From Gemmatimonadota bacterium (GTDB taxonomy: Bacteria; Gemmatimonadota; Gemmatimonadetes; Longimicrobiales; Gaopeijiaceae), in assembly GCA_039587515.1 (NCBI GenBank), contig JBDHII010000077.1, positions 1-15,549 on the forward strand: 15,549 bases of DNA. The letters are read 5' to 3'. Shown in pieces: positions 1,841 through 15,549 of the stretch (positions within the stretch are counted from its first letter, which is position 1; each line of letters starts with the position of its first letter). Below the pieces are notes generated by a model. That model searched no databases and was not told the origin of the DNA. It was given only the letters and a program-made list of their open reading frames with translations. The position numbers and the translations under genes were made by a program.

Positions 1841-3151
1841 CTAGAGGATGCAGCCGTCCGACACCAGGTCGGCCAGCTTTTCGGACTTGTCAGACGAGAT
1901 ACGGCGGAGGACCTCTTTGAACTCCGGGTAATCCGCGCGCAGCCGATTGAAGGCCGTGCTCGGCAGGAAGAAGATGTCACAGTGACTCAAAGCGTACACC
2001 GAGCCGGTCCGGCGCTCCCCCAGCAACAGTGACAGGTCGCCGAAGTAGTCTCCTGCCTCGAATTCCCCGAAAGACTTTGTGTCGCCCTCACCCCTGATCG
2101 CAAGCCGGCCGCTACCGACGAAGTAGAGTCCGGTGGCCACCTCCCCCTCCCGCACGACGTAACTGCCGGGGACGAACACCTGGGGCTCGAGGTGCATGAG
2201 GAGCGCGTTGCGAAGCGGCTCATCGGCATGGGTGAAGAGGGGAACACGCTCCGTCAGGTCCCGGGTGAGATGGTAGAGGACGTCGAGGCGGATCGGGTCG
2301 GGCAGGTCCTCGAGAAACCGCTGGGTGCTCACCCCCCGGTGCCGATCCCAGAGGTACTCGTAGTAGGCCTGGACCTGGGCCTGCAGCTCGAGGGGAACGC
2401 CTCTGTTCTGCAGGTAGCGGTTCACGCCCTCGACGCGGTCCCAGAAGGTGGACTTCGCCGCGTCGATCGCGCGGACGAGCGAGGCGATGCTTCCGATGAT
2501 CAGCGCGTACATCGAGGCACCGACGATCATGACGACCAGCGTGAAGAGATACTCGGCGTTGCGCGATGGAGTGATGTCTCCGAATCCCACGGTCGTGGTC
2601 GTCACGAACCCCCAATAGAGCGAGCGAAGGTACTGGCTGCCGACGTCCAGCGACTCGATGCCCGCGAGAACCACCCAGGAGTCCGCCGGGAATCCCTCCA
2701 CGACCGCGACGAGAAACCACCCGCAGGCGATCCAGTGGATCAGGACGAAGACGCCCACGACGAGCTTCGTGATTCTCAGATAGCCGGTGTTCGTGGAGCG
2801 CAGTCGCTCCCAGCCCCGAAAGGCTCGGAAGAGTCGGCCGATGCGAAGGAGGCGATTGGTCCTGAGCAGGAGCGCGAGCGGGATCCCGCCCAACGTGGCC
2901 GCGGAGCCGAGGAAGAGGAGATCGATCGGAACGGTGCCCGCAACGTCTGTCCAGAAGCCCGAGCGGCGGTATCGCCGAGCGATGGCTTTACGGTCGTGGA
3001 CCTCGGCTCCCCCGGCTCGGAACGGCGTGCGAAAGCCGAGCCGAATGTCGATCAGAAAGGCGAGGTCCAGCAGGTAGACGATCAGGCTCCCGACGAGGCC
3101 GACCTGCCGAAAGAAGGCGATCTGGGCGGGCACCACGACGACCGTGGCCAA
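1841..3151 (-). CDS. Cyclic-nucleotide-gated K+ channel (6TM, CNG/HCN-like; SthK/LliK/MloK1 type).
   Basis: There is an S4-like arginine ladder (LLLRTNRLLRIGRLFRAFRGWERLR) and a K+ selectivity filter (TTTVGFGD). A C-linker follows with eukaryote-like CNG/HCN spacing (YYEYLWDRHRGVSTQRFLEDLPDPIRLDVLYHLTRDL...VPLF...QVFVPGSYVVREGEVATGLYFVGSGRLAI). The CNBD phosphate-binding cassette is present (FGEFEAGDYFGDLSLLLGERRTGSVYA). The start is TTG at 3151 with no SD. The frame stays open upstream but contains no other start codon. Confidence 0.85.
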   Translation of the reverse strand: MATVVVVPAQIAFFRQVGLVGSLIVYLLDLAFLIDIRLGFRTPFRAGGAEVHDRKAIARRYRRSGFWTDVAGTVPIDLLFLGSAATLGGIPLALLLRTNRLLRIGRLFRAFRGWERLRSTNTGYLRITKLVVGVFVLIHWIACGWFLVAVVEGFPADSWVVLAGIESLDVGSQYLRSLYWGFVTTTTVGFGDITPSRNAEYLFTLVVMIVGASMYALIIGSIASLVRAIDAAKSTFWDRVEGVNRYLQNRGVPLELQAQVQAYYEYLWDRHRGVSTQRFLEDLPDPIRLDVLYHLTRDLTERVPLFTHADEPLRNALLMHLEPQVFVPGSYVVREGEVATGLYFVGSGRLAIRGEGDTKSFGEFEAGDYFGDLSLLLGERRTGSVYALSHCDIFFLPSTAFNRLRADYPEFKEVLRRISSDKSEKLADLVSDGCIL

Positions 3152-3252: not shown

Positions 3253-3585
3253 TCAGAAGCCCTCCAGCGCCTCGGCCTCGGAGGGGAAGACGGCGAAGAT
3301 CGTGCTGAACCCGGAGATCTCGAAGACTTCGGCCACCGTCTCGTTGAGGCCGCAGAGTCTCAGGTTTCCGCCGGTTCCCCGGAGCTTCTTGGCCGTGGCC
3401 AGCAGCACGCGGAGACCGGCGCTCGAGATGTAGTCGAGGTCGGTGAAGTCCACCAACACCTTCGCGACCCCCTGTGCGGCGAGGTCGTCGAGGCGCTCCT
3501 GTGCCTCGGGCGCGGTGTTGGTATCCAGGTTCCCCTCGACTTGCACGACGGTGACGCCGTCGGCCTCACGAAGTGAGATGTTCAC
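3253..3585 (-). CDS. Anti-sigma-factor antagonist (single STAS domain, RsbV/SpoIIAA-like).
   Basis: 110 aa. The motif ...LVDFTDLDYISSAGLRVLL... carries the phosphorylatable Ser context seen in SpoIIAA/RsbV. The GTG start at 3585 is preceded by a GAGGAGGA SD. GTGA overlaps the stop of the upstream PP2C-kinase gene. Confidence 0.85.
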   Translation of the reverse strand: MNISLREADGVTVVQVEGNLDTNTAPEAQERLDDLAAQGVAKVLVDFTDLDYISSAGLRVLLATAKKLRGTGGNLRLCGLNETVAEVFEISGFSTIFAVFPSEAEALEGF

Positions 3586-5279
3586 GCATCCTCCTCATCG
3601 GTTTCGATGCCAGAAAGGTATTTCACCAGGACCACCACGTTCCGGTCCGTACGTCGGGTGTAGGACACCTCGTCCATCAAGCTCTCGACGAGGTGGATGC
3701 CGAGACCGCCGATGTCGCGCTCGTCGATCTCCAGAGCGGTGTCCGGGCTCGCCCGCCCGAAGGGGTTGAACGGCTGCCCGTCGTCGGTCAGACGAACGGC
3801 GAGCCGATCCGACGAGAGCTCGATGTGGACGTCGATCACGTGCTCTTCGTCGTCGGTGTACGCATAGGAAATGACGTTGTTGAGCAAGTCGTCGAAGACG
3901 AGCTTCAAGCTTCGGCGGACCTTCTCCGGGAGGCCGTGCTCGGCCGAGAACGCTTCGAAGGCCTCGTTGACCCGGTCGATCTCCTCCAGACGGTTCGCGG
4001 CCTCGACGTGAAGCACGTGAATGTCCGCCGCCCCCCCGGCCCGCCCGACGAAGCGGACAGCGAGAACCGTCACGTCGTCCGCCTGCTCGGCCTCGGCCTG
4101 GAAGCGCCAGACGTCCTCGGTGGACGCCGCCACCATGTCCTCCACGGTCTCGAACGGCTTCGAGTCCAGGATCTCGACCAGACGGTCCTCTTCGTAGAGC
4201 GTGCCGTCCGGATCCATCGCCTCGGTCACGCCGTCCGTGTACAGGAAGACGAAGTCGCCCGACTCCAACTGGCCCTTGGACTCTCCGTAGACCAGCCCGT
4301 CGACCGCGCCGATCACCGGCCCGTGCCGCTTGTCGAGCCGGATGCTCTGACCGTCCGACCGCTTCAGGTACGGCGGGTTGTGGCCCGCGTTGGTGTAGAG
4401 GAACTCGCCGGTGCTCACATCCAGGATTCCGAGCCATAGCGTGACGAACATCGCCGAGTCGTTGTTCTGGGAGATCTCGTCGTTGACATGGGTCAGAATG
4501 CTCGCCGGGGAAAAGTCGTTCGTCGCCCGGGATTTGATCAGCGTCTTGGTGACGGCCATGAAGAGCGCGGCCGGGACGCCCTTCCCCGAAACGTCGCCCA
4601 CGCAAAAGCAGAATCGGTCTTCGTCGATCAGGAAGAAGTCGTAGAAGTCCCCGCCCACCTCCCTCGCCGGCTCCAGCGTGGCGAACACGGTGAAGTCGTT
4701 GCGGTGCGGGAACGGAGGGAACTCGAGTGGGAGCATGCTCATCTGAATGTCCCGCCCGATGTTCAGCTCGCTCTCCATGCGCTCCTTGGCCGTCGTCGTT
4801 CGACGCAGGTTGTCGAAAGACTCCTGCAGCTCGCGGTTCTTGACCGTGAGCTCGCCCATCAGCGCGTCGCGACTCTTCTCTTCCACCATCGCGCGCAAGG
4901 CCGCGAGCCGACGCTCCGACAGCGCCGCCTGATTCAGGCTGGCGAGATGCAAGCCGAGCCTGAGAGCGGGCTCTCCGTCCACGCGCACACGGTGCACGTT
5001 GTCGAAGAAGGCTGCCGCGAACTCCCCGTCGACCTCACGGTCGACGCCCACGAAATCGAGGACGAGTTCCGGCATCACCGCGTCCGGGAGGACCCGCACG
5101 TCGATGCGTCCCGCGTCCGACATGCGCTCCACGACTCTGTAGAGCTGTGAGGTCACCGAGGCGATTCGGCTCGCCAGCATTCGGTCCCCTGTCAGCTCCT
5201 CCAACACACGCTGGACCTTCCGGCGTGCGTCGGAAACGGAGCCGATCCCGCCCCCCGTGATCGTTCCGACGTCGATCAT
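3582..5279 (-). CDS. Three-part signalling protein: an unknown N-terminal domain (~150 aa), a PP2C phosphatase (SpoIIE/RsbU type) and a C-terminal RsbW/SpoIIAB-like GHKL serine kinase (anti-sigma-factor type).
   Basis: ATG at 5279. A coiled-coil lead-in (ELNIGRDIQMSMLP) precedes the PP2C metal-site motifs GGDFYDF, GDVSGKGVPAALFMA, YTDGVTEA and DDVTVLAV. The C-terminal HATPase_c motifs are NNVISYAY (N box), DDGQPFNP (D/G box) and GGLGIHLV (G box). ATGA overlaps the upstream gene and GTGA overlaps the downstream STAS gene. Confidence 0.85.
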   Translation of the reverse strand: MIDVGTITGGGIGSVSDARRKVQRVLEELTGDRMLASRIASVTSQLYRVVERMSDAGRIDVRVLPDAVMPELVLDFVGVDREVDGEFAAAFFDNVHRVRVDGEPALRLGLHLASLNQAALSERRLAALRAMVEEKSRDALMGELTVKNRELQESFDNLRRTTTAKERMESELNIGRDIQMSMLPLEFPPFPHRNDFTVFATLEPAREVGGDFYDFFLIDEDRFCFCVGDVSGKGVPAALFMAVTKTLIKSRATNDFSPASILTHVNDEISQNNDSAMFVTLWLGILDVSTGEFLYTNAGHNPPYLKRSDGQSIRLDKRHGPVIGAVDGLVYGESKGQLESGDFVFLYTDGVTEAMDPDGTLYEEDRLVEILDSKPFETVEDMVAASTEDVWRFQAEAEQADDVTVLAVRFVGRAGGAADIHVLHVEAANRLEEIDRVNEAFEAFSAEHGLPEKVRRSLKLVFDDLLNNVISYAYTDDEEHVIDVHIELSSDRLAVRLTDDGQPFNPFGRASPDTALEIDERDIGGLGIHLVESLMDEVSYTRRTDRNVVVLVKYLSGIETDEEDA

Positions 5280-6376
5280 CGCGTCTTGAAACGACAGACG
5301 ACCACGGTCGCGTCGTCGTGTCTCTTTCCGTATCGGCCCACGATCTTCTCGGCTACGGTTTCGGCCGACTGGTAGCGCAGCTGAGGGTAGTCGTCGAACG
5401 TCGTGCGGTCCGAGATGCCGTCCGTGTGAATGATCAGCACGTCTCCCTCGGTGAGCCGGGCTGAATCGACACGGACATTCTTGACCTGAGAGCCCACGGT
5501 GCCTGCCGTGGCCGTGAGCCGCAGGGCTCGCTCTCCCTCGAGTCGAAGGACCGTGTTCCCGACCGCGGCATAGCGTGTCGTTCCCGAAGACAGCTCGATC
5601 CAGCAGAGAGAGACGGCGGCGCCTACGGTCTCCCGAAGTCGCTCGTTCAGCTTCTTCATCAGGTGACCGAGATCCGAGGTGGGCTCGCGCCGCACGTACC
5701 GTGTCGCGGCCTTTGCCGCCCCGTTGGCCTCCCTTCCGTGGCCCAGGCCGTCGACCACCACGATGAGCACGCCGTCTTCCACTTCGGTGACCGCGACGCC
5801 GTCTCCGCTCACGAGCTCTCCGCGACAGGGCCGGTTCACGTACGCCACCTCGAGCGGCCGGCTCTCTGCATCACCGGCCGGAAAGAGCAGGTTGCCTCGA
5901 TCCGTTCCGCGTTCCGAGAAGGCCTCGCTCCCGGTGACGGCGGCGGGCAGCGAGACCCGCCTCGGAGGAGAGACGGATTCGAGCCACTTCTGCACGACCA
6001 CCGTCGTCCCCTCACCGGTCTTGGATTCGATCGAGAAGTCGTCGACCATCCGCCTGACCCCCGGCAACCCGAGGCCGAGCGTCCCGCTCGAGCTGAAGTG
6101 ATCTCGCAGGGCCTCCTCGACGTTCTCGATACCCGGCCCCCGATCGGCGACCGTGATCTGCATGCCGCGACGGCTGCCCGATTGCACCTCTTCGATCGTG
6201 ACGCGACCGAACTCGGCGTACTTGAGAATGTTTGTCGCCAGCTCCGACACGACGGTTCCGATCGAGCGACTCTGCAGCTCGTTGAACTCCATCTCGCGCG
6301 CGAACTGCGTTGCCGAAACCACGGCGTGGGTCACGTCCGGATCGGTCCGGATTCTTCGCACGGTTCTACTCGGCAT
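5276..6376 (-). CDS. Fusion protein: an RsbT-like serine kinase (N-terminal) joined to an RsbX-like PP2C phosphatase (C-terminal).
   Basis: The N-terminal ~135 aa align by eye to B. subtilis RsbT: SELATNILKYA...TIEEVQSGSRRGMQITVADRGPGIEN...GLGLPGVRRMVDDFSIESKTGEGTTVVVQKWL. The C-terminal half aligns to RsbX: VSGDGVAV...VVVDGLGHGREAN...AAVGNTV...DVLIIHTDGIS...DDATVVVC. The start I chose is the ATG at 6376, which overlaps the end of the RsbS gene by 11 nt (gATGccgagTAG). The Arg-rich extension in the ORF track (start 6532) looks out-of-frame and is probably not translated. Confidence 0.8.
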   Translation of the reverse strand: MPSRTVRRIRTDPDVTHAVVSATQFAREMEFNELQSRSIGTVVSELATNILKYAEFGRVTIEEVQSGSRRGMQITVADRGPGIENVEEALRDHFSSSGTLGLGLPGVRRMVDDFSIESKTGEGTTVVVQKWLESVSPPRRVSLPAAVTGSEAFSERGTDRGNLLFPAGDAESRPLEVAYVNRPCRGELVSGDGVAVTEVEDGVLIVVVDGLGHGREANGAAKAATRYVRREPTSDLGHLMKKLNERLRETVGAAVSLCWIELSSGTTRYAAVGNTVLRLEGERALRLTATAGTVGSQVKNVRVDSARLTEGDVLIIHTDGISDRTTFDDYPQLRYQSAETVAEKIVGRYGKRHDDATVVVCRFKTR

Positions 6377-6839
6377 CGTCCTCGTCGACCGACGTCGCCT
6401 CAGTGGGCGCCCCCGCCTCGAGCTCGGTATCCGCTTCAAGGTCGGACTCCCCCTCGCCCGCGGGCTCCGTACGGCGCAGCTCCGCCATGCGTGCGAAGGC
6501 ATCGTCGAGCGTCGCGGTGGCCTCCACACCACGCGTATCCGCTCCCAGGTCGATCAGGGCCGAGACCACGCCGGGCTGGAGGCCGGATACGACGGTCACG
6601 GCGCCGAGGAGCCGTGCCATCCGCATGGTGTCGCGAAGCGCCTGAAACTCGACCGAGTCCATCACCGTCACGCCCGACAGATCCAGAATGACACCGCGAG
6701 CTCCCGAAGCGCGGACGAACTCGAGCAGCTCGTTGCGGAAGGCGCTGAGAATCCGGTCGTCCAGATCCACCTGGATCGACGCGACCACGCACTCCTGGGC
6801 CAGCTGGAGCGGGATCTTCGACGCTTCCTCCGTACTCAT
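6366..6839 (-). CDS. rsbS: RsbS-like STAS protein (stressosome core antagonist) with an acidic C-terminal tail.
   Basis: GVILDLSGVTVMDSVEFQAL...LLGAVTVVSGLQPGVVSALIDLG aligns with the B. subtilis RsbS segment VVIDLTSVDMIDSFIAKVL...GIQPAVAVTLIELG and conserves the phospho-Ser. ATG at 6839. The start lies 2 nt after the rsbR stop. Confidence 0.85.
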   Translation of the reverse strand: MSTEEASKIPLQLAQECVVASIQVDLDDRILSAFRNELLEFVRASGARGVILDLSGVTVMDSVEFQALRDTMRMARLLGAVTVVSGLQPGVVSALIDLGADTRGVEATATLDDAFARMAELRRTEPAGEGESDLEADTELEAGAPTEATSVDEDDAE

Positions 6840-6841
6840 CT

Positions 6842-7753
6842 TCAGCGCGCGCCGCTTCCCTTTCGTCCGATCGTCTGAACCGCGTCGGCCAGCGCGTCGC
6901 GCATCGTCGCCGTCGTCTTCACCTCACCCACGTCGATCCCGAGGTCGACGATCGTCTGGGCGATGGCCGGCGAGACTCCGGAGATCGTCGTCTCACAGCC
7001 CATGAGCTTGGTCGCCCGGGTGATCTTGATGAGGTGGTTCGCCACGGCCGTATCCACGACTCCAACCCCGCTGATGTCGAGAATGAAGACGCGGGCCTGC
7101 GACTCGGCGATCTTGCCGAGCGTGGCGTTCATGATGTCCCGAGACCGCTTCGAATCGATGATTCCGACGATCGGCAGGAACAGGAGGCTCTCCCAGATCT
7201 GCGTCACCGGCGTCGACATCTCCATGAGCGACCGGGACTGGGCGGTCAGCGTCTGCTCGACGAGGTGATTGTAGGTGTCGACGACGATGGCCGTGTCGAG
7301 ATGCAAGAGCTTGATGACGGCATCGAGCGTGGGAGCCCGATCAGCATCCGCGAAATCCCCCTCACGGATGACCATGCTGAACAGCTCCTGAAACATGTTC
7401 ATCCCGGCGAAGTACGTGTTCAGCGGCAGTCCGATGCGGGCATGCGCCTCTCCGACGAGCCGGCGCCGCTCGACGTATTCCGCATCGACCGTCCCCGCCA
7501 TGAAGGCCTCCCAGTAGCCCTGTTGCAGGGATTGGACGCGCTTCAGCGTCTCGGGATCCGCGAAGAACTCGTCGTAGTCGGGGAGCTTGGCGAGCCACTC
7601 GTACCACTTGTCCACAAGCTCGTCCATTCGGGCCAAGGCCTGCTCCCCGAAGATACGAATCCGCTCCAGGCCTTCATCGTCGAGGCGATACAGCTCCAGG
7701 AGCGCCCTGTGATCGACATGATGGTCGCCCGTCGTTGCGTAGTGACCGGCCAT
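6842..7753 (-). CDS. rsbR: RsbR-like stressosome sensor: an N-terminal globin-coupled sensor (protoglobin-type) domain plus a C-terminal STAS domain.
   Basis: The C-terminus VFILDISGVGVVDTAVANHLIKITRATKLMGCETTISGVSPAIAQTIVDLGIDV is near-colinear with B. subtilis RsbRA (GVPVVDTMVAHHI...GIRPEIAQTIVNLGIEL), including the Thr phospho-sites. The N-terminal domain shows globin-sensor features (YWEAF..., VGEAHARIGLPLNTYFAG with a candidate proximal His). The start is the ATG at 7753 behind an AGGAGG SD (AGGAGGCGAGCTTTCAATG). The ORF-track extension to 8011 is Arg/Trp-rich out-of-frame junk. Confidence 0.8.
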   Translation of the reverse strand: MAGHYATTGDHHVDHRALLELYRLDDEGLERIRIFGEQALARMDELVDKWYEWLAKLPDYDEFFADPETLKRVQSLQQGYWEAFMAGTVDAEYVERRRLVGEAHARIGLPLNTYFAGMNMFQELFSMVIREGDFADADRAPTLDAVIKLLHLDTAIVVDTYNHLVEQTLTAQSRSLMEMSTPVTQIWESLLFLPIVGIIDSKRSRDIMNATLGKIAESQARVFILDISGVGVVDTAVANHLIKITRATKLMGCETTISGVSPAIAQTIVDLGIDVGEVKTTATMRDALADAVQTIGRKGSGAR

Positions 7754-7805: not shown

Positions 7806-9704
7806 TCAATTCTCGTGTTCGACTGCGATCTCGATGGCATCGCGAAGCGTGCGCGCCGTGACGATGCCGTGAATGTCCACGTTGCTCTCCGCCATCCGTG
7901 CGGCCATCTCCGGCCGCACCCCGGATATGATCGCCCGGGCCCCCAACAAGCCGGCCGAGCGCGCGACCTTGAGAAGCCCCTGGGCGACATCGTCGTCCAG
8001 GTTGGGCACACCCGTCAGATCCAGGATCGCGAACCGCGCACCCTTCTCGTGCAGCTGACTCGTCAGCGACTGGCGAAGCTGCTCACAGCGGGCCGTGTCG
8101 AGCTCGCCCACGAGAGGGAGCACGACCACGTCGTCGTGAATCGGGATGAGCGGGGTCGAGAGCGCTTCGATCGAGCGGTTTTGCCGATCGATCAGCTCTC
8201 GAAGCGAGACGCGCATCGCCTCGAAGCTGCCAGCCAGCTCCCCGATCTCGTCACCCCGATCGACTTCGACCTGGGCTTCGAGGTCGCCGCTCGCCAGTTG
8301 ACTCGCCGTGACGGAGAGCGCTCGGATCGGGCGCGTCAGATTTCCTGCGAACCAGACTGCGAGCGCACCGAGGAGCGGAAGAAGGAGCGCGACCCACAGG
8401 AGCATGCGATTGCGCTGAGCGACGACCGGCGAGAGCGCCTCCGCGGCGTCGATCTCACTCATCAAAACCCAATCCAGGTCTGGAATGCTCAGGGGTCGGA
8501 AGCTCGAGAACACCTCGACGTCCCGGTAGTCCGGAAAGCGGGCCACGCCCGTCTCGCCGCCGAGCGCGAGCTCCGTACCGCGGGTCCGGACGGGCTGGAG
8601 GCCTACGGCGCTCCCCTGCGCCTCGATGGACCGAACCGTTGCCGGAGGCACACCCGCCTCACCGATCGCCGTGAGATACGCCTCGACGTCCTCCACCAGG
8701 AACCTCGACTCGGTCCTCAGCCGGTAGTCGGGGCCTACGAGGTAGGACTCGCCGGACTCACCGAGCCCGGTCGCCTGCCAAGCCGCCCCGCTCGTCATCA
8801 CGTCGTTGATGCGGTCCAACGGAAGCTGGAAAACCAGAACGCCCAGGAGCTCGCCGTCCTGCATCACGGGTGAGGCGATGAAAGAAGCTTGGGCACCGTA
8901 GGAAGGAGCGTACGGCTCGAAGTCTTCGAGCCGCGTGAAAGCGGCGCTTCCGGCGGCCAGCGCAGCGCGGTAGACCGAAGCGAGGTTGGATTCTCGGTAC
9001 GGACCCGCCTCGAGCGTCGTGCCGAAGTCGACCTCTTTGAAAACCGAGTAGACGATGCGGTGCGTCTGCGCATCGACCAGGAAGACGTCGTAGTAGCCGA
9101 AGCGTTCCAGGAAGCTCCGGAGCAGCGGGTGATAGCGCCCATGCACCGCGTCGTACCGCGTGCCCGCTTCGGCACGGTCCAGCAGGTGCTTGGAGCCCAC
9201 AGCGAAGGGGTTCGAGCTCACGTAGAGGTATTGGAGTAGACGCCCCAGTCCGTCCGATGGCCAATATTCCGAGAGCGGGCCGGCATCGTCCGAATTGGCC
9301 GAGAGCCTCGGAAGAAACTCGTCCTGGTAGTAGAGCCTCAGGCCGAGGTCGAGGTCACTCGCCGACGGCCCGGAGGCCAGAAGCTCGTTCTCCAGCGTTC
9401 GCGCCGCGGCAGTAAACTCGCGGAGCGCCTCCACGACCATGAGGTTCTCGGACTGGGTGACCACCTGGTCGCGGATCGTCTCGAAGTAGCCCTCGATCTG
9501 CCGGCCCTTGAGCTCCCGGACCGACGTCAGTAGATCGAGGGCCTGCTGCTCGGAGGTGGAGACGCCGAGGCGGTAGGCCACGGCAGCCATCGTCCCGACC
9601 GAGATGATCGTTACGATCGCCAGCACCGAGAGGACGCGCAGGCGGATCGAGAGATCCCTCAGACCCTGGCTCGATGCGCCGGCTCGCTCAGACTCTGGTG
9701 ACAC
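7806..9704 (-). CDS. Membrane-anchored sensor: TM1, a ~380-aa periplasmic Cache-like (double PAS-like) domain, TM2, a HAMP domain and a C-terminal RsbR/RsbS-type STAS domain.
   Basis: The hydrophobic segments are VLSVLAIVTIISVGTMAAVAY and MLLWVALLLPLLGALAVWFAG. HAMP is indicated by LTRPIRALSVTASQLASGDLEAQVEVDRGDEIGELAGSFEAMRVSL. The STAS motif is FAILDLTGVPNLDDDVAQGL...AIISGVRPEMAARMAES, which is stressosome-type but has Asp in place of the phosphorylatable Ser/Thr. The GTG start at 9704 overlaps the upstream small ORF by 17 nt. Confidence 0.75.
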   Translation of the reverse strand: MSPESERAGASSQGLRDLSIRLRVLSVLAIVTIISVGTMAAVAYRLGVSTSEQQALDLLTSVRELKGRQIEGYFETIRDQVVTQSENLMVVEALREFTAAARTLENELLASGPSASDLDLGLRLYYQDEFLPRLSANSDDAGPLSEYWPSDGLGRLLQYLYVSSNPFAVGSKHLLDRAEAGTRYDAVHGRYHPLLRSFLERFGYYDVFLVDAQTHRIVYSVFKEVDFGTTLEAGPYRESNLASVYRAALAAGSAAFTRLEDFEPYAPSYGAQASFIASPVMQDGELLGVLVFQLPLDRINDVMTSGAAWQATGLGESGESYLVGPDYRLRTESRFLVEDVEAYLTAIGEAGVPPATVRSIEAQGSAVGLQPVRTRGTELALGGETGVARFPDYRDVEVFSSFRPLSIPDLDWVLMSEIDAAEALSPVVAQRNRMLLWVALLLPLLGALAVWFAGNLTRPIRALSVTASQLASGDLEAQVEVDRGDEIGELAGSFEAMRVSLRELIDRQNRSIEALSTPLIPIHDDVVVLPLVGELDTARCEQLRQSLTSQLHEKGARFAILDLTGVPNLDDDVAQGLLKVARSAGLLGARAIISGVRPEMAARMAESNVDIHGIVTARTLRDAIEIAVEHEN

Positions 9705-10083
9705 GCACGCTTCCGGTTGGAAGGGTCACGTACCAGACCGACTCCGTGATGACGGATTCGACCGGATAGACGAGCCCTCCCTGGTCGAGCGCGTCCCCGA
9801 GCCGCATCGCTACGGAGATCCGGCCCTCCTCCACCCACTGGTTGTCCGCCTGGACCGTGAAAGCCAGTCCGGGACCGATCTGGGCCGCGAGAGAGGTGTG
9901 ACCCCCTTCATAGACATCCACCACCGCCTCGGACGGATCCGGATTGGCGCTGAGGACCCATGCGCCGGACGTCTCCTCGTGCGTCAGGAACTCCTCACGC
10001 GTCTCCCGATAGAGGACCGAGTCGGGACCGAGTCCGCCGAGCTCCAATGTCTCTCGCAACGCCTTCGCGGTCGCATCGTCCAT
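9688..10083 (-). CDS. Hypothetical protein (131 aa).
   Basis: ATG at 10083 with a GGAGGAGAAGTG-ATG SD. MDDATAKALRETLELGG...VRVTRV. GC3-rich. Its stop overlaps the GTG start of the Cache-HAMP-STAS gene (GTGTCACCAGAGTCTGA). I found no recognisable motif. Confidence 0.45.
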   Translation of the reverse strand: MDDATAKALRETLELGGLGPDSVLYRETREEFLTHEETSGAWVLSANPDPSEAVVDVYEGGHTSLAAQIGPGLAFTVQADNQWVEEGRISVAMRLGDALDQGGLVYPVESVITESVWYVTLPTGSVRVTRV

Positions 10084-10158
10084 CACTTCTCCTCCCACGC
10101 GAGTTTACCGGAGTCTGAGTCTGACCCCAGGGCGAAGTCTCCGCAATCACCCGATCGC

Positions 10159-11178
10159 TCAGAGCTCCTTGGGGATCTCGGCGGTCGACGTGGACTCGCC
10201 TCCGCGCGCCATGCGCTCGAAGTCGACGCCGGTAGCCGTCTTCATCTGCTCGATCATCGAAACGGCACTCCCCGTGAGGTTGCGAACGTAGTTCGGCAGC
10301 CCCTCGCCGCCCTGCTCCCCCCCTCCGTCGAGGATCGTGAGCTTGTCCACGCGCAGGTTGTCCGCTACCACGCGCGTGACCTTCTCGATCAGGTCCGGGA
10401 ACATGTGGATGAGGAAGAGCTCGTGGGTCTTGCCCTCGTCCCATTCCGCCCTCATCAGCTGGACGGCGTCGGCCGTGGCCTTCCCCTGCTCCCGGATGCG
10501 GGCCGCTTCTCCTTCAGCCCGAAGCCGCTCCGCCTCCGCCATGGCCGTCGCGGGGATCACCGTGTCGGCCTCATGCCTCCGCTTGCTCAACTCGGCCCGG
10601 ATGGACTCGAGCTCGACCTCGCGCTCGACGCGGGCGATCTGCCCGGCGACCTGGGCGCGCTCGCGTGCCTCGTTCTCGGACGCTTTGAGGTTGGCCCGCT
10701 CGACCTCCAGCGCGTTTTCCTTCTGGATGACCAGCTGCTCGGCGGCGATCTCCGCCTCCCGCCCGACGCGACGCTGCTCGGCCGACACCTCCCTCGCCTG
10801 AGCTTCCGCCTCCGCCTCCGCGATCTGAGCGTCGCGGTGCACCTCGGCATTACGCTTGCGTCCGATGGCCTGCAGGTAGCCCGCCTCGTCCGAGAGGTCG
10901 TGGATCTGGAAGAAGTCCAGCACGATGCCGAGGCCGGCGAGCTCCTCACGCGCACGCTCCGCCACTTCCTGGGCCAGCTCGAGCCGGCGCTCATTGGCCT
11001 CTTCCGGTCGGACGCCCGCGATCACGCCGCGCAACGCACCCTCCAGCACCTGCTGCGCCGTCTTGTCGATGGCCTCTACGCCCTTGCCGAGGAACCGCTC
11101 GATGCCCGCCTCGAGCCCCTGCTCCTCCCGACCGGCGAGCTTCACGTTCGCACGGCCCTCGATGTCGACCGGGATCAT
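10159..11178 (-). CDS. Flotillin-family protein, C-terminal portion (the end of the SPFH domain plus Ala/Glu-rich coiled-coil repeats).
   Basis: IERFLGK...EGALRGVIAGVRPEEANERR..LAQEVAERAREELAGLGIVLDFFQIHDLSDEAGYLQAIGRKRNAEVHRDAQIAEAEAEAQA... matches the flotillin (FloT/YqiK) SPFH end and EA-repeat region. It begins at an ATG that overlaps (ATGA) the stop of the 66-aa N-terminal fragment. It is probably one gene interrupted by a frameshift (see findings). Confidence 0.75.
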   Translation of the reverse strand: MIPVDIEGRANVKLAGREEQGLEAGIERFLGKGVEAIDKTAQQVLEGALRGVIAGVRPEEANERRLELAQEVAERAREELAGLGIVLDFFQIHDLSDEAGYLQAIGRKRNAEVHRDAQIAEAEAEAQAREVSAEQRRVGREAEIAAEQLVIQKENALEVERANLKASENEARERAQVAGQIARVEREVELESIRAELSKRRHEADTVIPATAMAEAERLRAEGEAARIREQGKATADAVQLMRAEWDEGKTHELFLIHMFPDLIEKVTRVVADNLRVDKLTILDGGGEQGGEGLPNYVRNLTGSAVSMIEQMKTATGVDFERMARGGESTSTAEIPKEL

Positions 11179-11394: not shown

Positions 11395-12831
11395 CTACGC
11401 GTTGAAGTACAGAGCGAACTCCCCGGGGTGAGGCCGGAGGCGCACGTAGTCGATCTCGTTCTTTCGCTTGTAGTCGATCCAGGTTTCGATCAGGTCTTCA
11501 GTGAAAACGCCGTCCCGGACCAGGAAGTCGTAATCCGCTTCGAGCGCCGAGATCGCCTCGTCCAGGGTCCCCGGAGTGCGCTCGATCTCCCTTCCTCCCG
11601 AGCCCGCCGCAAGCTCGTAGATGTCTTCGTCCACGGGGTCGGCAGGCTCCAGCCCACGCCGAATCCCGTCGATTCCGGCGCACATGATCGCCGCGAAGCT
11701 GAGATAGGGGTTGCACGACGGATCTGGCGTGCGGAACTCGATCCGCTTCGACTTCGGACCCCCGGTCATCGTCGGGATGCGGATGCACGCGCTCCGGTTC
11801 CGTCCCGAATAGAGCAGGTTCATCGGGGCCTCGTAGCCCGGTACGAGCCTCCGATAGGAGTTCGTCGTCGGACAGCAGATCCCACAGAGAGCTCGGGCGT
11901 GCTCCAGTAGCCCCCCGATGAAGTGGACCGCCAGCGGGCTCAGGTCACCGTAGGTGCCCGCCTGGTAGAACACGTTCTTCCCCTCTTTCGAGAGGCTGAT
12001 GTTGTGGTGCATGCCCGAGCCGTTTTCCTGAAGGAGAGGCTTGGGCATGAAAGTGGCCGTCTTCCCGTACCGGGCCACCACGTTCTTGACCACGTACTTG
12101 TACATGATCGAGGCGTCGGCCTGGCTCAGCAGCGGACCGAACCGGAAGCCGATCTCGCACTGGCCCGCAGCACCCACCTCGTGATGGTGCAGCTCCGGCT
12201 GTAGGCCGACCCGCTTGAGCACGTGGGAGATCTTGGAGCGGAGGTTGTTGTACTGATCGATCGGTGGCGCCGAGAAGTACGCGCCACGCTGCGCGGCTCG
12301 GTGTCCCAGATTCGCGCTGTCACCCTTCTCGCCCGTCGCCCAGGACGCCGCGGAGCTGTTCAGGAAGAAGTACCCGTGCTGGGTGGCCTGATCGAAGCGG
12401 ACCTCGTCGAACACGAAAAACTCGATCTCGGGGCCCAGGTAGGCCGTGTCGGCGATCCCGAGCGAGCGCACGAGCTGCTCGGCCCGACGTGCGACCGAAC
12501 GCGGATCGCGCGAGAAGGTGTAGCGCCCGTTCGGGTCGACGATGTCACAGAAGACCGACAGTGCCGGATCGTCGAAGAAGGGATCCTCGAAGACCGAAGA
12601 CGCGTCGGGAATCAGGAGCATGTCGCTCTGGTTGATCCTCGTGAAGCCGCGGACCGAGGAGCCGTCGAAGGCCATGCCGTTGCGGAACAGGGCCTCGTCC
12701 ACCAGCTCGGCCGGCAGCGTGAGGTGCTGAAGCGTTCCGAAGAGATCCACGAACTTCAGGTCCAGGAACTGGATCTCGCGCTCGCCGATCATGCGGACGA
12801 GGTCGCGCGGGCTGGTTGGATGCCTGGTCAT
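11395..12831 (-). CDS. glnA: Glutamine synthetase, type I.
   Basis: 478 aa. The GS-I signatures are present, including GSGMHHNISL, NPY..., and the N-terminal beta-grasp and catalytic-domain layout. ATG at 12831 behind a GAGGA SD that overlaps the glnK stop. Confidence 0.95.
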   Translation of the reverse strand: MTRHPTSPRDLVRMIGEREIQFLDLKFVDLFGTLQHLTLPAELVDEALFRNGMAFDGSSVRGFTRINQSDMLLIPDASSVFEDPFFDDPALSVFCDIVDPNGRYTFSRDPRSVARRAEQLVRSLGIADTAYLGPEIEFFVFDEVRFDQATQHGYFFLNSSAASWATGEKGDSANLGHRAAQRGAYFSAPPIDQYNNLRSKISHVLKRVGLQPELHHHEVGAAGQCEIGFRFGPLLSQADASIMYKYVVKNVVARYGKTATFMPKPLLQENGSGMHHNISLSKEGKNVFYQAGTYGDLSPLAVHFIGGLLEHARALCGICCPTTNSYRRLVPGYEAPMNLLYSGRNRSACIRIPTMTGGPKSKRIEFRTPDPSCNPYLSFAAIMCAGIDGIRRGLEPADPVDEDIYELAAGSGGREIERTPGTLDEAISALEADYDFLVRDGVFTEDLIETWIDYKRKNEIDYVRLRPHPGEFALYFNA

Positions 12832-12839
12832 CGAGGTCC

Positions 12840-13175
12840 TCAGTAGAGGGCCCGGGAGCCGCGCTCGCCGGTCCAGACAGTGACCACGTCCTGAAGCTCC
12901 AGAACGAAGATCTTACCCGAGCCACCGCTGTCCATGCAGCCCCTCGAGATCGCCTCTATCGCTCGCTCGAGGTTCGCGTCGTTGACGGCGACCTCGAGGC
13001 GAATCCGCTGAAAGAGAGAGACCTCCTTCTTCACGCCCCGGTACGTCTGCTGCTCGGTCCGAGAGGCAGTGCCCATGACGGAGGTTGCCGTCATGTGACG
13101 GACTTCGGTGTCGAACAGCGCCTGCTTGACGGAAGGAAGCTGCTCAGGCTTGATCAGCGCGACGATCATCTTCAT
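12840..13175 (-). CDS. glnK: Nitrogen regulatory protein PII (GlnK/NrgB-like).
   Basis: 111 aa. MKMIVALIKP..., a T-loop ending ...TYRGVKKEV (the B. subtilis NrgB-like YRGVKIE type), and GSGKIFV (B-loop, G[DS]GKIFV). ATG with a GGAGA SD, 18 nt after the amtB stop. Confidence 0.9.
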   Translation of the reverse strand: MKMIVALIKPEQLPSVKQALFDTEVRHMTATSVMGTASRTEQQTYRGVKKEVSLFQRIRLEVAVNDANLERAIEAISRGCMDSGGSGKIFVLELQDVVTVWTGERGSRALY

Positions 13176-13193: not shown

Positions 13194-14504
13194 CTAGTCG
13201 GTGGTGAAGATCTGGAACCCGCCGTACGACTCGATTCCGTGCTCGTCGATGTCGAGGCCGCGCAGCTCGGTCTCCTTCGAGACGCGCAGGCCCAGAACGG
13301 AGTCGATCGACTTGAACACGACCCACATGGCCAGAACCGTGAAGCCCAGGCAGGCGATGACGCCCAGCGTCTGGGTGCCCAGCGGTCCGAAGCCACCCCC
13401 CATGAAGAGCCCGTCGCTCGTCGCTCCGAAGGCCTCCCGGCCCCAGAGCCCCACGGCCAGCGTTCCCCAGATTCCGCAGATCCCGTGGACCGCCACCGCC
13501 CCGACCGGATCATCGACCCGAATCGCGTCGATCCATGCGATTCCGTATACGCAGAGGATACCGGCGATGGCCCCGATCCAGAGCGCTGCTCCAGGGCTGA
13601 CGGCGGCACAGGGCGCCGTGATGCCGACGAGTCCGGCCAGAGCCCCGTTGAGGGCGAGAAGCAGGTCCGGCTTCTCGTACTTGATCCAGCTGACCACCAT
13701 CGCCGCGACTGCCCCGATCGAGGGCGCGAGCGTCGTGTTGATCGCGACCCGCGCGACCACGTCCGGCTCTCCCATCCCCAGCGTCGAGCCGGCGTTGAAG
13801 CCGTACCACCCGAACCAGAGGATGAAGACACCGAGCGAAGCCAGCGGGAGGCTGTGCCCTCCAATGGCGTTGGGTGATCCGTCCGCGTTGAACTTTCCGA
13901 TACGCGGACCGAGAACCCACGCACCGACCAGGCCGGTCGCACCTCCGACGGCGTGTACGACCGTCGAGCCGGCGAAATCGTGAAAGCCCAGCCCGCTGAG
14001 CCAGCCGCCTCCCCACACCCAGTGACCGACGATCGGATAGATGAAGGCGGAGAGGATGAAGGAGTAGGCGAGGTACGAGGTGAACTTCATCCGCTCTGCG
14101 ACCGCACCCGCTACGATCGTGGCCGCCGCACCCGCGAATACCGCCTGGAACAGCCAGAACACTTCGACCGGCAGGCCCTCCACGGGTGACTCCACCCCCA
14201 CCAGGAACCACCCTTCAGTTCCGAAGAGCAGCCCCTCCGACCCGTACATGATGGCGTATCCGAAGACGAAGTAGGCCAGAGCGGCGAAGCAGAAGTCCAG
14301 GAGGTTCTTCATCAGAACGTTCCCGGCGTTCTTGGTCCGCACGAGGCCGGCCTCGAGCACGCTGAACCCGGCCTGCATGAAGAAGACGAGGATCGCGGCC
14401 AGCAGAATCCACAGCGTGCTCACGCTGTCGAACCCGCTCGCCTCCTGAACTGCTGGCAGGGCTGGATTCAAGTCGAAGAATCCCACACGAAAGGCAAGAG
14501 CCAT
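13194..14504 (-). CDS. amtB: Ammonium transporter (Amt family).
   Basis: 436 aa and 11-12 TM. The conserved Amt motifs include DFAGSTVVHAVGG and HG..G........; ATG at 14504. Confidence 0.95.
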   Translation of the reverse strand: MALAFRVGFFDLNPALPAVQEASGFDSVSTLWILLAAILVFFMQAGFSVLEAGLVRTKNAGNVLMKNLLDFCFAALAYFVFGYAIMYGSEGLLFGTEGWFLVGVESPVEGLPVEVFWLFQAVFAGAAATIVAGAVAERMKFTSYLAYSFILSAFIYPIVGHWVWGGGWLSGLGFHDFAGSTVVHAVGGATGLVGAWVLGPRIGKFNADGSPNAIGGHSLPLASLGVFILWFGWYGFNAGSTLGMGEPDVVARVAINTTLAPSIGAVAAMVVSWIKYEKPDLLLALNGALAGLVGITAPCAAVSPGAALWIGAIAGILCVYGIAWIDAIRVDDPVGAVAVHGICGIWGTLAVGLWGREAFGATSDGLFMGGGFGPLGTQTLGVIACLGFTVLAMWVVFKSIDSVLGLRVSKETELRGLDIDEHGIESYGGFQIFTTD

Positions 14505-14631: not shown

Positions 14632-15459
14632 TCAGCCGTCCCAGGGCACGCGATAGAGCGAAACCGGCTCAGGAAAGCCTTTCAGCTCCGCCGTGCCACA
14701 GACCTCGAACGGGAGGTTCTTGCCGAGGCAGAGCTCCCGAACGACGCCGGCCGCCAGGATCTCCCCGCTCTCGGCCTCGTCACAGACCCGGGCTGCGAGG
14801 TTCACCACCGAGCCGAAGATGTCGCTGCCGCGAGAGACGGGCTCGCCTGCACTCAGTCCGATGCGGATGTGGAGCGCATGCTCGGGATGGGCCTCCCGAT
14901 GATCGGCGAACGCACGCTGCGTGTCGCGGGCGCAGGCCACGGCCGCCGTGGCATCGGCGAAGGAAGCGATGGCGCCATCTCCCGTGTGCTTCACCTTGCG
15001 TCCGTGATGCCGATGAATCTGCCCGCGCAGCAGGTGATCGTGTGCCTCCATCAGCTCCATCATCTCGTGGTCGCCGAGCTCCTGCACCAGCGCCGTGGAC
15101 CCCACGAGGTCGGTGAACATGAGGGTTCGGAAGGCGGAGACAGGCTCGCCCATCGACCCGATCGCAGCGCCCAGGTCGTCGAAGCTCCCGCCGCCGAGGA
15201 AGGCGGCCACGAGCTCGTCCTCGACGCTGATGATCTCGTCCGCCACGAGCCCGTGCGCCTTGCGATGAACCGCGTGACAGGCCTCCTCGTTCGGCGCCTC
15301 CACCAAGCAGCACACCGTACCGCGCTTCTCGTCGAACCAGTACTTGAGGTACTTGACGCCGTGGGCTTCCTGGGCCTCCAGATCGGCGATGTGCCCCTCA
15401 CGGATGGATTCCGGCGTGGCACCTTCCAGGTTGCGATGGATGTCGAGAAAAAGCGGCAC
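14632..15459 (-). CDS. Class III adenylate/guanylate cyclase with an N-terminal DUF4242-like (SCO4226-type) domain.
   Basis: A GTG start at 15459 gives MPLFLDIHR..., the canonical DUF4242 N-terminus, behind an AAGGGAGGA SD. The ORF track's upstream start at 15528 is probably over-extended. The cyclase motifs are FTDLVGSTAL, HTGDGAIASF, RIGLSAGEPV and GSVVNLAARV. Confidence 0.8.
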   Translation of the reverse strand: MPLFLDIHRNLEGATPESIREGHIADLEAQEAHGVKYLKYWFDEKRGTVCCLVEAPNEEACHAVHRKAHGLVADEIISVEDELVAAFLGGGSFDDLGAAIGSMGEPVSAFRTLMFTDLVGSTALVQELGDHEMMELMEAHDHLLRGQIHRHHGRKVKHTGDGAIASFADATAAVACARDTQRAFADHREAHPEHALHIRIGLSAGEPVSRGSDIFGSVVNLAARVCDEAESGEILAAGVVRELCLGKNLPFEVCGTAELKGFPEPVSLYRVPWDG

Positions 15460-15549
15460 GAATCCTCCCTTGATGTTTGGGCGTCGAGGATCATGGTCAG
15501 GGGCGATGCCAAGATCAAGGCGAGGCACGGCACGGGCGACTGGCCGGCA

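Follow-up and report, generated by a model that had tools for sequence, protein, structure and literature searches.

Results

Architecture and topology of the target protein

The DNA analysed here, hereafter the window, is the whole 15,549-nucleotide (nt) stretch at positions 1 to 15,549 of contig JBDHII010000077.1 from a Gemmatimonadota bacterium (GenBank assembly GCA_039587515.1). The subject of this work is the gene at positions 7806..9704, whose 632-residue product, denoted the target, joins a periplasmic double-Cache (dCache) sensor and a HAMP domain to a STAS domain of the kind found in the stressosome protein RsbR. All genes and features given below lie on the reverse strand. The coordinates of the target gene were taken from the open reading frame (ORF) list and Pfam, the end coordinate including the stop codon. 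A 632-residue protein identical to the target is present in public collections, where it is labelled 'anti-anti-sigma regulatory factor/HAMP domain-containing protein'.

An earlier note on this DNA had proposed that a STAS protein of the RsbR/RsbS subfamily is held in the membrane by a transmembrane (TM)-Cache-TM-HAMP arrangement. This architecture was borne out by Pfam, hydropathy, structure prediction and Foldseek. The hydropathy scan of the target gave two membrane-span candidates only, TM1 at about residues 22-45 (9570..9641) and TM2 at about residues 430-452 (8349..8417), both coinciding with helices of the AlphaFold2 model. For TM1, the 19-residue Kyte-Doolittle windows with values above 1.6 begin at residues 17-30, and for TM2 the peak is found in windows starting at residues 432-439. 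Three Lys/Arg residues stand ahead of the TM1 segment and none just behind it. Since Lys/Arg residues are found on the N-terminal and post-TM2 sides, residues 46-429 (384 residues; 8418..9569), which the two spans enclose, are predicted to be periplasmic, and the HAMP and STAS domains cytoplasmic.

Scanning the periplasmic region with Pfam returned dCache_1 (PF02743) at residues 201-413 with 48.2 bits against a cut-off of 45, the match covering profile positions 65-236 only. The HAMP domain (PF00672) follows right after TM2 at residues 451-503 (8196..8354), with E = 4e-17 and profile positions 1-53 of 53 covered, and residues 407-502 match the NCBIfam family SiaA. The STAS domain, matched by Pfam at residues 519-610 (E = 5e-13), extends over residues 519-632 (7809..8150) as judged from Pfam, NCBIfam, PDB phmmer and Foldseek together. 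The AlphaFold2 model, built from a 36-homologue alignment, has a mean predicted local distance difference test (pLDDT) value of 87, with most of the sensor domain above 90. In the model TM1 is part of one unbroken helix over residues 20-85, which continues into two alpha/beta modules; helix 425-471 then passes from TM2 into HAMP, and a long helix leads on to a five-stranded STAS fold. More than 100 full-length homologue clusters with 43-72% identity to the target have the same architecture. The domain order of the target is established and, as a structural observation, is far beyond chance.

The STAS domain and its linker

We compared the last 134 residues of the target with all PDB chains using phmmer. 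The top match was Vibrio vulnificus RsbR (6e-20), followed by RsbR of the Listeria/Bacillus type (2e-19 to 7e-18), YtvA (7e-16; 2mwg), RsbS (about 1e-11) and SpoIIAA (5e-4). The alignments are ungapped, start in the pre-STAS helix and span the RsbR-typical junction, which reads 'ALSTPLIPI' in the target. The longer segment 'IEALSTPLIPI' lies without gaps on 'LQELSAPLLPI' of Listeria RsbR and on 'LLAMSTPVTMI' of V. vulnificus RsbR. The linker (residues 504-518; 8151..8195) corresponds in these alignments to the linker helices of Listeria RsbR (residues 143-165) and V. vulnificus RsbR, and the target has the RsbR junction pattern '(A/E)LS(T/A)P(L/V)(I/L)P' after this helical linker. The best NCBIfam match of the C-terminus is the C-terminal part of YtvA_fam. 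Foldseek against the PDB placed the C-terminus on B. subtilis RsbS (6jhk; template-modelling score 0.89-0.90, root-mean-square deviation 1.5 A), full-length YtvA and L. innocua RsbR. The sequence and structure comparisons thus agree with the subfamily proposed in the earlier note, with RsbR being the closest relative, and on these alignments the STAS domain and linker are classed as specifically RsbR-like, not RsbS- or RsbV-like. The stretch between the HAMP AS2 motif (E486) and the first STAS strand (P530) has the same length, 45 residues, in 109 out of 110 homologues, as would be expected if a continuous helix transmits the signal.

Two other assignments were considered and rejected. An anti-sigma antagonist of the SpoIIAA/RsbV type is a lone STAS domain with a conserved phospho-Ser; the target, which has several domains, sits in the membrane, carries Asp in place of the Ser and matches SpoIIAA weakly, does not belong to this class. 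It was likewise rejected as a phosphorylatable antagonist of the PP2C::kinase output protein described below, given the same Asp and the existence of a canonical RsbV-like gene.

Phospho-acceptor positions

The STAS domains of RsbR and RsbS form the stressosome core, which has a mass of about 1.5-1.8 MDa, and hold the kinase RsbT. Phosphorylation of RsbR at T171 is constitutive, and phosphorylation at T205 occurs under extreme stress and damps signalling. RsbX strips the phosphates from S59 of RsbS and T205 of RsbR.

The motif NLDDD occupies target residues 568-572, its middle Asp being D571 (codon 7992..7994). In ungapped HMMER alignments D571 lies under the phospho-Ser of RsbS (S59) and under the Thr of the RsbR motif 'VVDT'. 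By PDB chain numbering this is T209 of Listeria RsbR, as confirmed by the mutagenic sequence quoted in PMC9237128, a paper that equates T209 with B. subtilis T205. The same column is marked by the PDB phosphosite-mutant entries 9o4h ('VVDE') and 9o4r (RsbS, 'FIDA'). When the four STAS domains of the window are aligned, column 571 holds Asp in the target, Thr in the globin-coupled RsbR, Ser in RsbS and Ser in the RsbV-like protein. The motif of the other acceptor, 'GTIDTERAK' (T171 in B. subtilis RsbRA, T175 in Listeria RsbR), aligns to 'GELDTARCE' of the target, and alignment numbering together with the translation gives Thr537 (codon 8094..8096). The target therefore carries the RsbR-typical Thr at the T171/T175 column and lacks it at the T205/T209 column. 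The earlier note had aligned NLDDD with both RsbS Ser59 and RsbR Thr171 and had stated that no Ser/Thr is present. The first alignment holds: without gaps the residue at the S59 position is Asp571, and no Ser or Thr appears there. The RsbR equivalent, however, is T205 of RsbRA (Listeria T209) and not T171, whose own counterpart in the target is a Thr.

The composition of the two columns was then obtained from 111 full-length homologues. Column 571 contains Glu in 39 sequences, Pro in 18, Ala in 16, Asp in 12, Ser in 6, His in 4 and Thr in 3, with others making up the remainder; acidic residues thus account for 51 sequences (46%), Pro or Ala for 31%, and Ser/Thr for 9 sequences. Column 537 contains Pro (28), Glu (24), Gln (14), Arg (11), Ala (10) and Asp (10), with Ser in 3 sequences and Thr in the window protein only. 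Because Thr537 is so poorly conserved (Thr in 1/111), its functional use is doubtful. Judged by these columns, the target family as a whole has lost both putative RsbT target sites. The conserved trait of the family is the loss of the acceptor at position 571, at which a negative charge is frequent, not fixed. The fixed negative charge claimed earlier is not a family trait, and since only 46% of the homologues are acidic at this position and 31% have Pro or Ala, phospho-mimicry is not a selected feature. Of the two alternatives that had been offered, a phospho-mimetic or a non-phosphorylatable protein, it is non-phosphorylatability that is conserved in the homologues.

An exhaustive HMMER search (E <= 1e-10) collected 6,827 cluster representatives of RsbR-type STAS proteins. 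In the query and its nearest 147 representatives the T205 column holds Thr/Ser in 95 out of 148 sequences, and the 53 without Ser/Thr include Ala (22), Glu (13), Pro (5) and Asp (3). An acidic residue at the S59/T205 site has precedent and is not new: YtvA has E168 and E202 at the T171 and T205 positions, for which mimicry of phosphorylation has been proposed, and E197 of Listeria Lmo0799 is a further case (PMC3019169).

The periplasmic sensor

Using Foldseek against the PDB, we found that the middle region of the target resembles the double-Cache domains of PctA, PctB, PctC, DctB, Mlp24 and McpH, with a probability of 1.00 for PctA, DctB and Mlp24. The periplasmic domain had no sequence match in the PDB even at E <= 1, and its placement among dCache domains comes from the fold search. 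It is the most conserved part of the protein, being 40-50% identical from one phylum to another. In 71 sequences drawn from many phyla about 25 polar residues never vary, among them K172, Y184, H188, H192, D206, Y219, K223, E224 and D226, as well as D261, Y265, S268, E319, R330, R334, Y393 and R394. The cluster of His, Asp and Glu residues (H188-x3-H192, E224, D226, D261) might be a metal or cation site.

We also considered an amino-acid ligand of the PctA type. Gumerov et al. 2022 reportedly described a dCache_1AA pocket motif, R-x-W-Y with a downstream Asp, which binds the carboxyl and amino groups of amino acids. The equivalent stretch of the target reads 'GPYRESNLASVY' and has no Trp, by inspection alone and without superposition of the pockets; the invariant residues of the target (H188, H192, K223, E224, D226, D261 and others) differ from the dCache_1AA set. 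With the R-x-W-Y motif absent on this inspection, such a ligand is not supported.

Among the species genomes scanned, at least 583 encode a relative of the sensor (periplasmic domain plus HAMP). The outputs attached to it in 64 other species are SpoIIE/PP2C (26), MCP signalling (24), adenylate cyclase (7) and histidine kinase (5-7) domains. The sensor and HAMP are fused straight to PP2C::HATPase, the type of protein that forms the output of the window module, with an RsbV-like gene adjoining, in five loci (L011, L013, L038, L045 and L059), and one further protein, P0110, is likewise fused. These Rosetta-stone fusions imply that the information from the sensor ends at a PP2C::HATPase partner switch, with or without a stressosome layer.

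The stressosome module of the window

The target is the first gene of a module whose remaining members follow it closely. At 6842..7753, 52 nt downstream, lies a canonical soluble globin-coupled RsbR (Pfam Protoglobin and STAS), in which the T171 column is Ser and the T205 column is Thr. Among PDB entries, V. vulnificus RsbR (7o0i) is closest to this type of STAS domain. Positions 6366..6839 encode RsbS, which consists of one STAS domain. By phmmer against the PDB it matches B. subtilis RsbS (1.9e-18) and Listeria RsbS (9e-18) without gaps, the Ser of its motif 'VMDS' lying under B. subtilis S59. The gene at 5276..6376 encodes a 366-residue RsbT::RsbX fusion with a GHKL Ser/Thr kinase at residues 16-130 and a PP2C domain at residues 200-363. 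Pfam gives HATPase_c_2 and SpoIIE for this protein, and its PDB matches are Moorella RsbX (3zt9; 2e-20), B. subtilis RsbX (3w40; 1e-9) and SpoIIAB (1e-5). Tethering of the kinase to its own feedback phosphatase is unusual among stressosome modules. The target is thus encoded with both rsbS and rsbT.

The output protein (3582..5279) consists, by Pfam, of an N-terminal region of unassigned family, a PP2C (SpoIIE) domain and an RsbW-like HATPase_c_2 domain, and its NCBIfam matches are RsbW, SiaA and RssB. An RsbV/SpoIIAA-like single STAS protein with the phospho-Ser motif 'DYISSAG' is encoded at 3253..3585 (Pfam STAS, E = 1e-25) and is the presumed substrate of the output protein.

Conservation of the neighbourhood

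In order to compare neighbourhoods, we used 80 loci encoding relatives of the sensor and 5 loci with more distant STAS-type homologues; the controls were 49 loci, each 12 kb or longer, where the same sensor is joined to a different output. In the STAS-type loci a globin-coupled RsbR adjoins the target homologue in 14/14 cases and RsbS comes next in 13/14, the contig of the fourteenth ending inside rsbR. Neither RsbR nor RsbS was found beside the sensor in any of the 49 loci with other outputs, and adjacency to them was therefore rejected as a property of the sensor itself. RsbT/RsbX and an output are present in the STAS-type loci wherever the contig reaches, and gene order and orientation are conserved in the module, with short gaps or overlaps. 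The 14 loci are labelled Longimicrobiales/Gemmatimonadota, Acidobacteriota, Ignavibacteria, Chromatiales, Deltaproteobacteria and Planctomycetota, that is, at least six phylum- or class-level groups. The stressosome link suggested in the earlier note is hence backed by synteny, in the window as well as across the related loci.

The module also varies between loci. L082 and L083 have a hybrid histidine kinase as output in place of PP2C::HATPase, and the core of dCache-HAMP-STAS, RsbR, RsbS, RsbT and RsbX is unchanged. The RsbT::RsbX fusion is kept in L001-L007, L081, L084 and L085, and the two proteins are encoded by separate genes (132 and 212 residues) in L082 and L083. An RsbV-like gene is found in 9/14 STAS-type loci. 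Neighbours other than RsbR and RsbS recur in 4 to 9 of the 14.

Other genes in the window

Directly upstream of the module are amtB (13194-14504), glnK/P-II (12840-13175), glnA (11395-12831) and an SPFH/Band_7 gene (10159-11178). The SPFH/Band_7 gene is present in 6/14 STAS-type loci, and amtB-glnK-glnA with SPFH adjoins the module in 6-7 of 14, compared to 0-1 of the 49 loci with other outputs. The loci with nitrogen genes (L001, L002, L004, L006, L007, L081 and L085) belong to Gemmatimonadota, Ignavibacteria and Planctomycetota. A link of the module to ammonium/nitrogen status or to membrane microdomains is possible.

Downstream of the module are a cyclic-nucleotide-gated ion channel (1841-3151) and a TCAD9/APH kinase-like protein (391-1830). 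TCAD9 genes occur in 9/14 STAS-type loci and in 0/49 others, and in L083 the TCAD9 domain is fused with Na+/H+ exchanger, TrkA_N and NUDT9_N domains. The window contains no sigma factor, and for this reason the partner switch could ultimately act on the channel and the TCAD9 protein. At the window edge (14632-15528) an SCO4226-like domain is fused to a class III adenylate/guanylate cyclase. The cyclase and the cyclic-nucleotide-gated channel hint at a cyclic AMP branch; the cyclase fusion is absent from the 14 related loci. A small ORF of 136 residues (9688-10098) shares 17 nt with the start of the target gene. Its Pfam match to AvrPphF-ORF-2 is at threshold level (E = 2e-5, 25 bits), and the ORF is found with 70% identity at the same position in L001 and with 45% identity elsewhere in L002.

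Discussion

Proposed function of the target

Our preferred reading, to which we assign a probability of roughly 0.6, is that the target is a membrane-integral, non-phosphorylatable RsbR paralogue, a 'co-antagonist' sensor subunit, that feeds a periplasmic signal into a mixed stressosome. A small ligand would bind the periplasmic double-Cache domain of a target dimer, and the signal would pass through TM2 to the HAMP four-helix bundle and along the rigid linker helix of fixed length to the STAS dimer, in parallel to the coupling between turret (globin or LOV) and STAS domain in RsbR or YtvA. The STAS dimer may take RsbR positions on the membrane-facing side of the mixed core, with globin-coupled RsbR and RsbS making up the remainder. 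A soluble RsbR partner in every STAS-type locus fits such a geometry, in which membrane subunits fill some of the positions only. From there the target could bias how readily the kinase half (RsbT) of RsbT::RsbX is captured or let go, and the freed RsbT would turn on the partner switch formed by the PP2C::kinase output and the RsbV-like protein. With Asp at residue 571 there would be no phosphorylation by RsbT and no reset by RsbX at the feedback site, and the role of the target would be input-only. A negative charge at S59 is reported to reduce the affinity for RsbT (PMC3944199; PMC6614362). YtvA, which is without both Thr acceptors and seemingly unable to form a stressosome with RsbS alone in vitro, is reported to be permanently incorporated in the stressosome and to act only positively (PMC3944199). 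The target may be an input-only modulator of this kind that also tethers the complex to the inner membrane.

Several points weigh against this reading. We infer the co-assembly of the target with RsbS and globin-coupled RsbR from homology and synteny only, and the 14 loci are not phylogenetically independent, six of them being labelled Gemmatimonadota or Longimicrobiales. The turrets of RsbR in the 60-mer pseudo-icosahedral particle point in all directions and membrane subunits could fill one face only, so the geometry of the assembly may differ, or the target may never enter a closed core. The residues Q217, E220, T254 and R264 of the Listeria RsbR-RsbS interface (PMC6614362) correspond to columns 579, 582, 616 and 626. 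Only column 616 keeps the Listeria residue (mostly Thr/Ser), columns 579 and 582 being mostly Arg/Lys and column 626 variable; mapping this interface onto the family is uninformative. Furthermore, the N-terminus of the output protein (about residues 1-218, given as window 3582-4240) matched no Pfam family and contained no RsbU_N, which in B. subtilis is the docking site of RsbT. Because a recognisable RsbU_N is missing there, the step from RsbT to the output is one that we only infer.

We also put forward, tentatively and with more doubt than confidence, a broader possibility: stressosomes in Gemmatimonadota, Planctomycetota, Ignavibacteria and others might be membrane-embedded receptor complexes, and not particles free in the cytoplasm, in which integral dCache-HAMP-RsbR and soluble haem-globin RsbR share a STAS core. 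If true, the assembly would have to be polarised, open or in some other way non-icosahedral. A periplasmic ligand would then be integrated with oxygen or nitric oxide status, and the output would be independent of a sigma factor, possibly being ion flux (through the cyclic-nucleotide-gated channel and TCAD9) or ammonium assimilation (amtB-glnK-glnA).

Alternative explanations

In the main alternative the target would be a stand-alone membrane antagonist, that is, a free dimer or small oligomer outside the core. Until ligand binds, its STAS domain would keep hold of either RsbT::RsbX or the RsbW-like part of the output protein, in parallel to a separate soluble stressosome of globin-coupled RsbR and RsbS. 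Isolated STAS domains bind GHKL kinases in every partner-switching system, and the membrane topology is hard to fit with a closed icosahedral shell. A sensor fused straight to PP2C::HATPase can drive output without a stressosome, and the apparent failure of YtvA to make one with RsbS alone in vitro (PMC3944199) agrees with this explanation. We consider it unlikely, although it deserves to be kept in mind, since the STAS domain and linker are specifically RsbR-like and not RsbS- or RsbV-like, and a STAS domain with D571 would be an improbable main sink for RsbT. Moreover, a soluble RsbR always adjoins the target homologues (14/14) and RsbS nearly always (13/14), which is expected of a subunit that needs assembly partners.

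If the co-assembly of the preferred reading is accepted and the signalling is not, the target becomes a passive membrane anchor, in which a phospho-mimetic STAS domain positions the stressosome and the periplasmic domain has little signalling role. This is close to the scaffold proposed in the earlier note. Asp at the S59/T205 position, the requirement of Listeria for the membrane tether Prli42 (PMC6614362), and the SPFH/Band_7 membrane-scaffold gene upstream in the window and in 6/14 loci are in its favour. However, the periplasmic domain is the best conserved part (40-50% across phyla, with its roughly 25 invariant polar residues), and chemoreceptors, PP2C phosphatases, adenylate cyclases and histidine kinases use the same domain as their input. 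An invariant HAMP-to-STAS spacing is what signal transmission would lead one to expect, and position 571 is acidic in 46% of the homologues with Pro/Ala in 31%. A scaffold undersells the target, as the conserved sensor and the invariant 45-residue spacing point to a signalling receptor, and we regard a purely passive anchor as quite improbable. Doubting the adjacency itself leads to an independent HAMP-STAS regulator of, for example, the SPFH protein, the cyclic-nucleotide-gated channel or the nitrogen genes, for which the neighbouring RsbR-RsbS-RsbT would be meaningless. STAS domains do have other roles, such as in SLC26 transporters, and amtB-glnK-glnA, SPFH, TCAD9 and ion-channel genes also recur by STAS-type loci. 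These neighbours are found in 4-9 of 14 loci, compared to 14/14 for globin-coupled RsbR and 13/14 for RsbS; the order and orientation are conserved, with a gap of 52 nt in the window, and the STAS domain is of the RsbR type. With the contrast of 14/14 to 0/49 contradicting it, an unrelated neighbour seems to us a very remote explanation.

Wider class and significance

Full-text literature searches found no description of a membrane-integral or HAMP-linked RsbR, the older stressosome surveys (Pane-Farre 2005, 2017), in which passing mention is possible, lying outside their scope; databases already list the domain combination of the target. Other membrane-anchored RsbR-type STAS proteins exist among the nearest representatives (P0152, P0172, P0176, P0182, P0195 and P0260), with the sensor arrangements HK-sensor-TM-STAS (HK_sensor_dom_bact), short sensor-HAMP-STAS, sensor-HAMP-PAS-STAS and a different dCache_1-HAMP-STAS. 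Three of them (P0182, P0195 and P0260) keep Thr at the T205 column and others do not. The target is therefore part of a larger class that is unstudied, and with more than 100 clusters of the target's own architecture the class appears broad.

The input of the stressosome, and how a signal enters the STAS core, is a long-standing question, and the ligands that activate RsbR in the model Gram-positive systems are still unknown. In the abstract of a 2025 study, stress sensing by RsbR is treated as only assumed (PMC11821858). An RsbR paralogue with a periplasmic ligand-binding domain and HAMP would be a tractable and screenable stressosome input, as the isolated soluble sensor domain suits ligand screening and the toolkit developed for HAMP domains and chemoreceptors applies to its signalling. 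It also poses the structural puzzle of how a closed pseudo-icosahedral shell accommodates membrane-embedded subunits. Since the sensor feeds at least five output types across bacteria, the identity of its ligand would annotate hundreds of receptors together.

Comparison with known systems

The closest parallels to the target are YtvA of B. subtilis and RsbL/Lmo0799 of L. monocytogenes. Both have a signalling helix before an RsbR-type STAS domain and a non-globin sensor, both are acidic at position T205 (E202 in YtvA and E197 in Lmo0799, compared to D571; PMC3019169), and both coexist with canonical RsbR and RsbS. YtvA, however, is soluble with a cytoplasmic LOV domain, whereas the target is an integral membrane receptor with a 384-residue periplasmic dCache domain and HAMP. 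YtvA is acidic at both sites, whereas the target keeps Thr537 at the T171 position, which its homologues mostly do not, and ytvA lies apart from the rsb operon while the target gene heads its module. In the RsbR family at large the turret is cytoplasmic (non-haem globin, haem globin or LOV). Its replacement by TM-dCache-TM-HAMP is what sets the target apart among RsbR proteins.

The neighbours of the target in the window are the system known from the RSTX modules of V. vulnificus and V. brasiliensis (7o0i), which have globin-coupled RsbR and variable output. Such modules, with outputs that include the PP2C type, have been described in Vibrio and other Gram-negative bacteria (PMC9237108). The Vibrio-type modules described have one soluble RsbR, whereas the module of the window adds a membrane-integral RsbR paralogue upstream and, unlike them, has RsbT and RsbX in one polypeptide.

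Periplasmic sensors with HAMP also stand upstream of a partner switch in Chlamydia RsbU and P. aeruginosa SiaA. These proteins act enzymatically on an RsbV-like substrate, whereas the target is without a catalytic domain, and its C-terminal STAS domain, RsbR-type and non-phosphorylatable, puts it upstream of the RsbS/RsbT layer. PctA/B/C, Mlp24, McpH and DctB share the periplasmic fold and the TM-dCache-TM-HAMP layout with the target. Compared to these proteins, the sensor domain of the target is about 100 residues longer and has no sequence-level relative in the PDB, and the output is a STAS domain.

As for the membrane link, the mini-protein Prli42 tethers the Listeria stressosome to the membrane and has been proposed to relay envelope signals (PMC6614362). 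Prli42 is a separate protein of the 31-residue class that contacts the turret of RsbR and lacks a sensor domain, whereas in the target the membrane span and the receptor are covalently part of the RsbR paralogue itself. By analogy, the target would functionally resemble YtvA/RsbL, as an accessory non-phosphorylatable RsbR paralogue, combined with a membrane link like that of Prli42.

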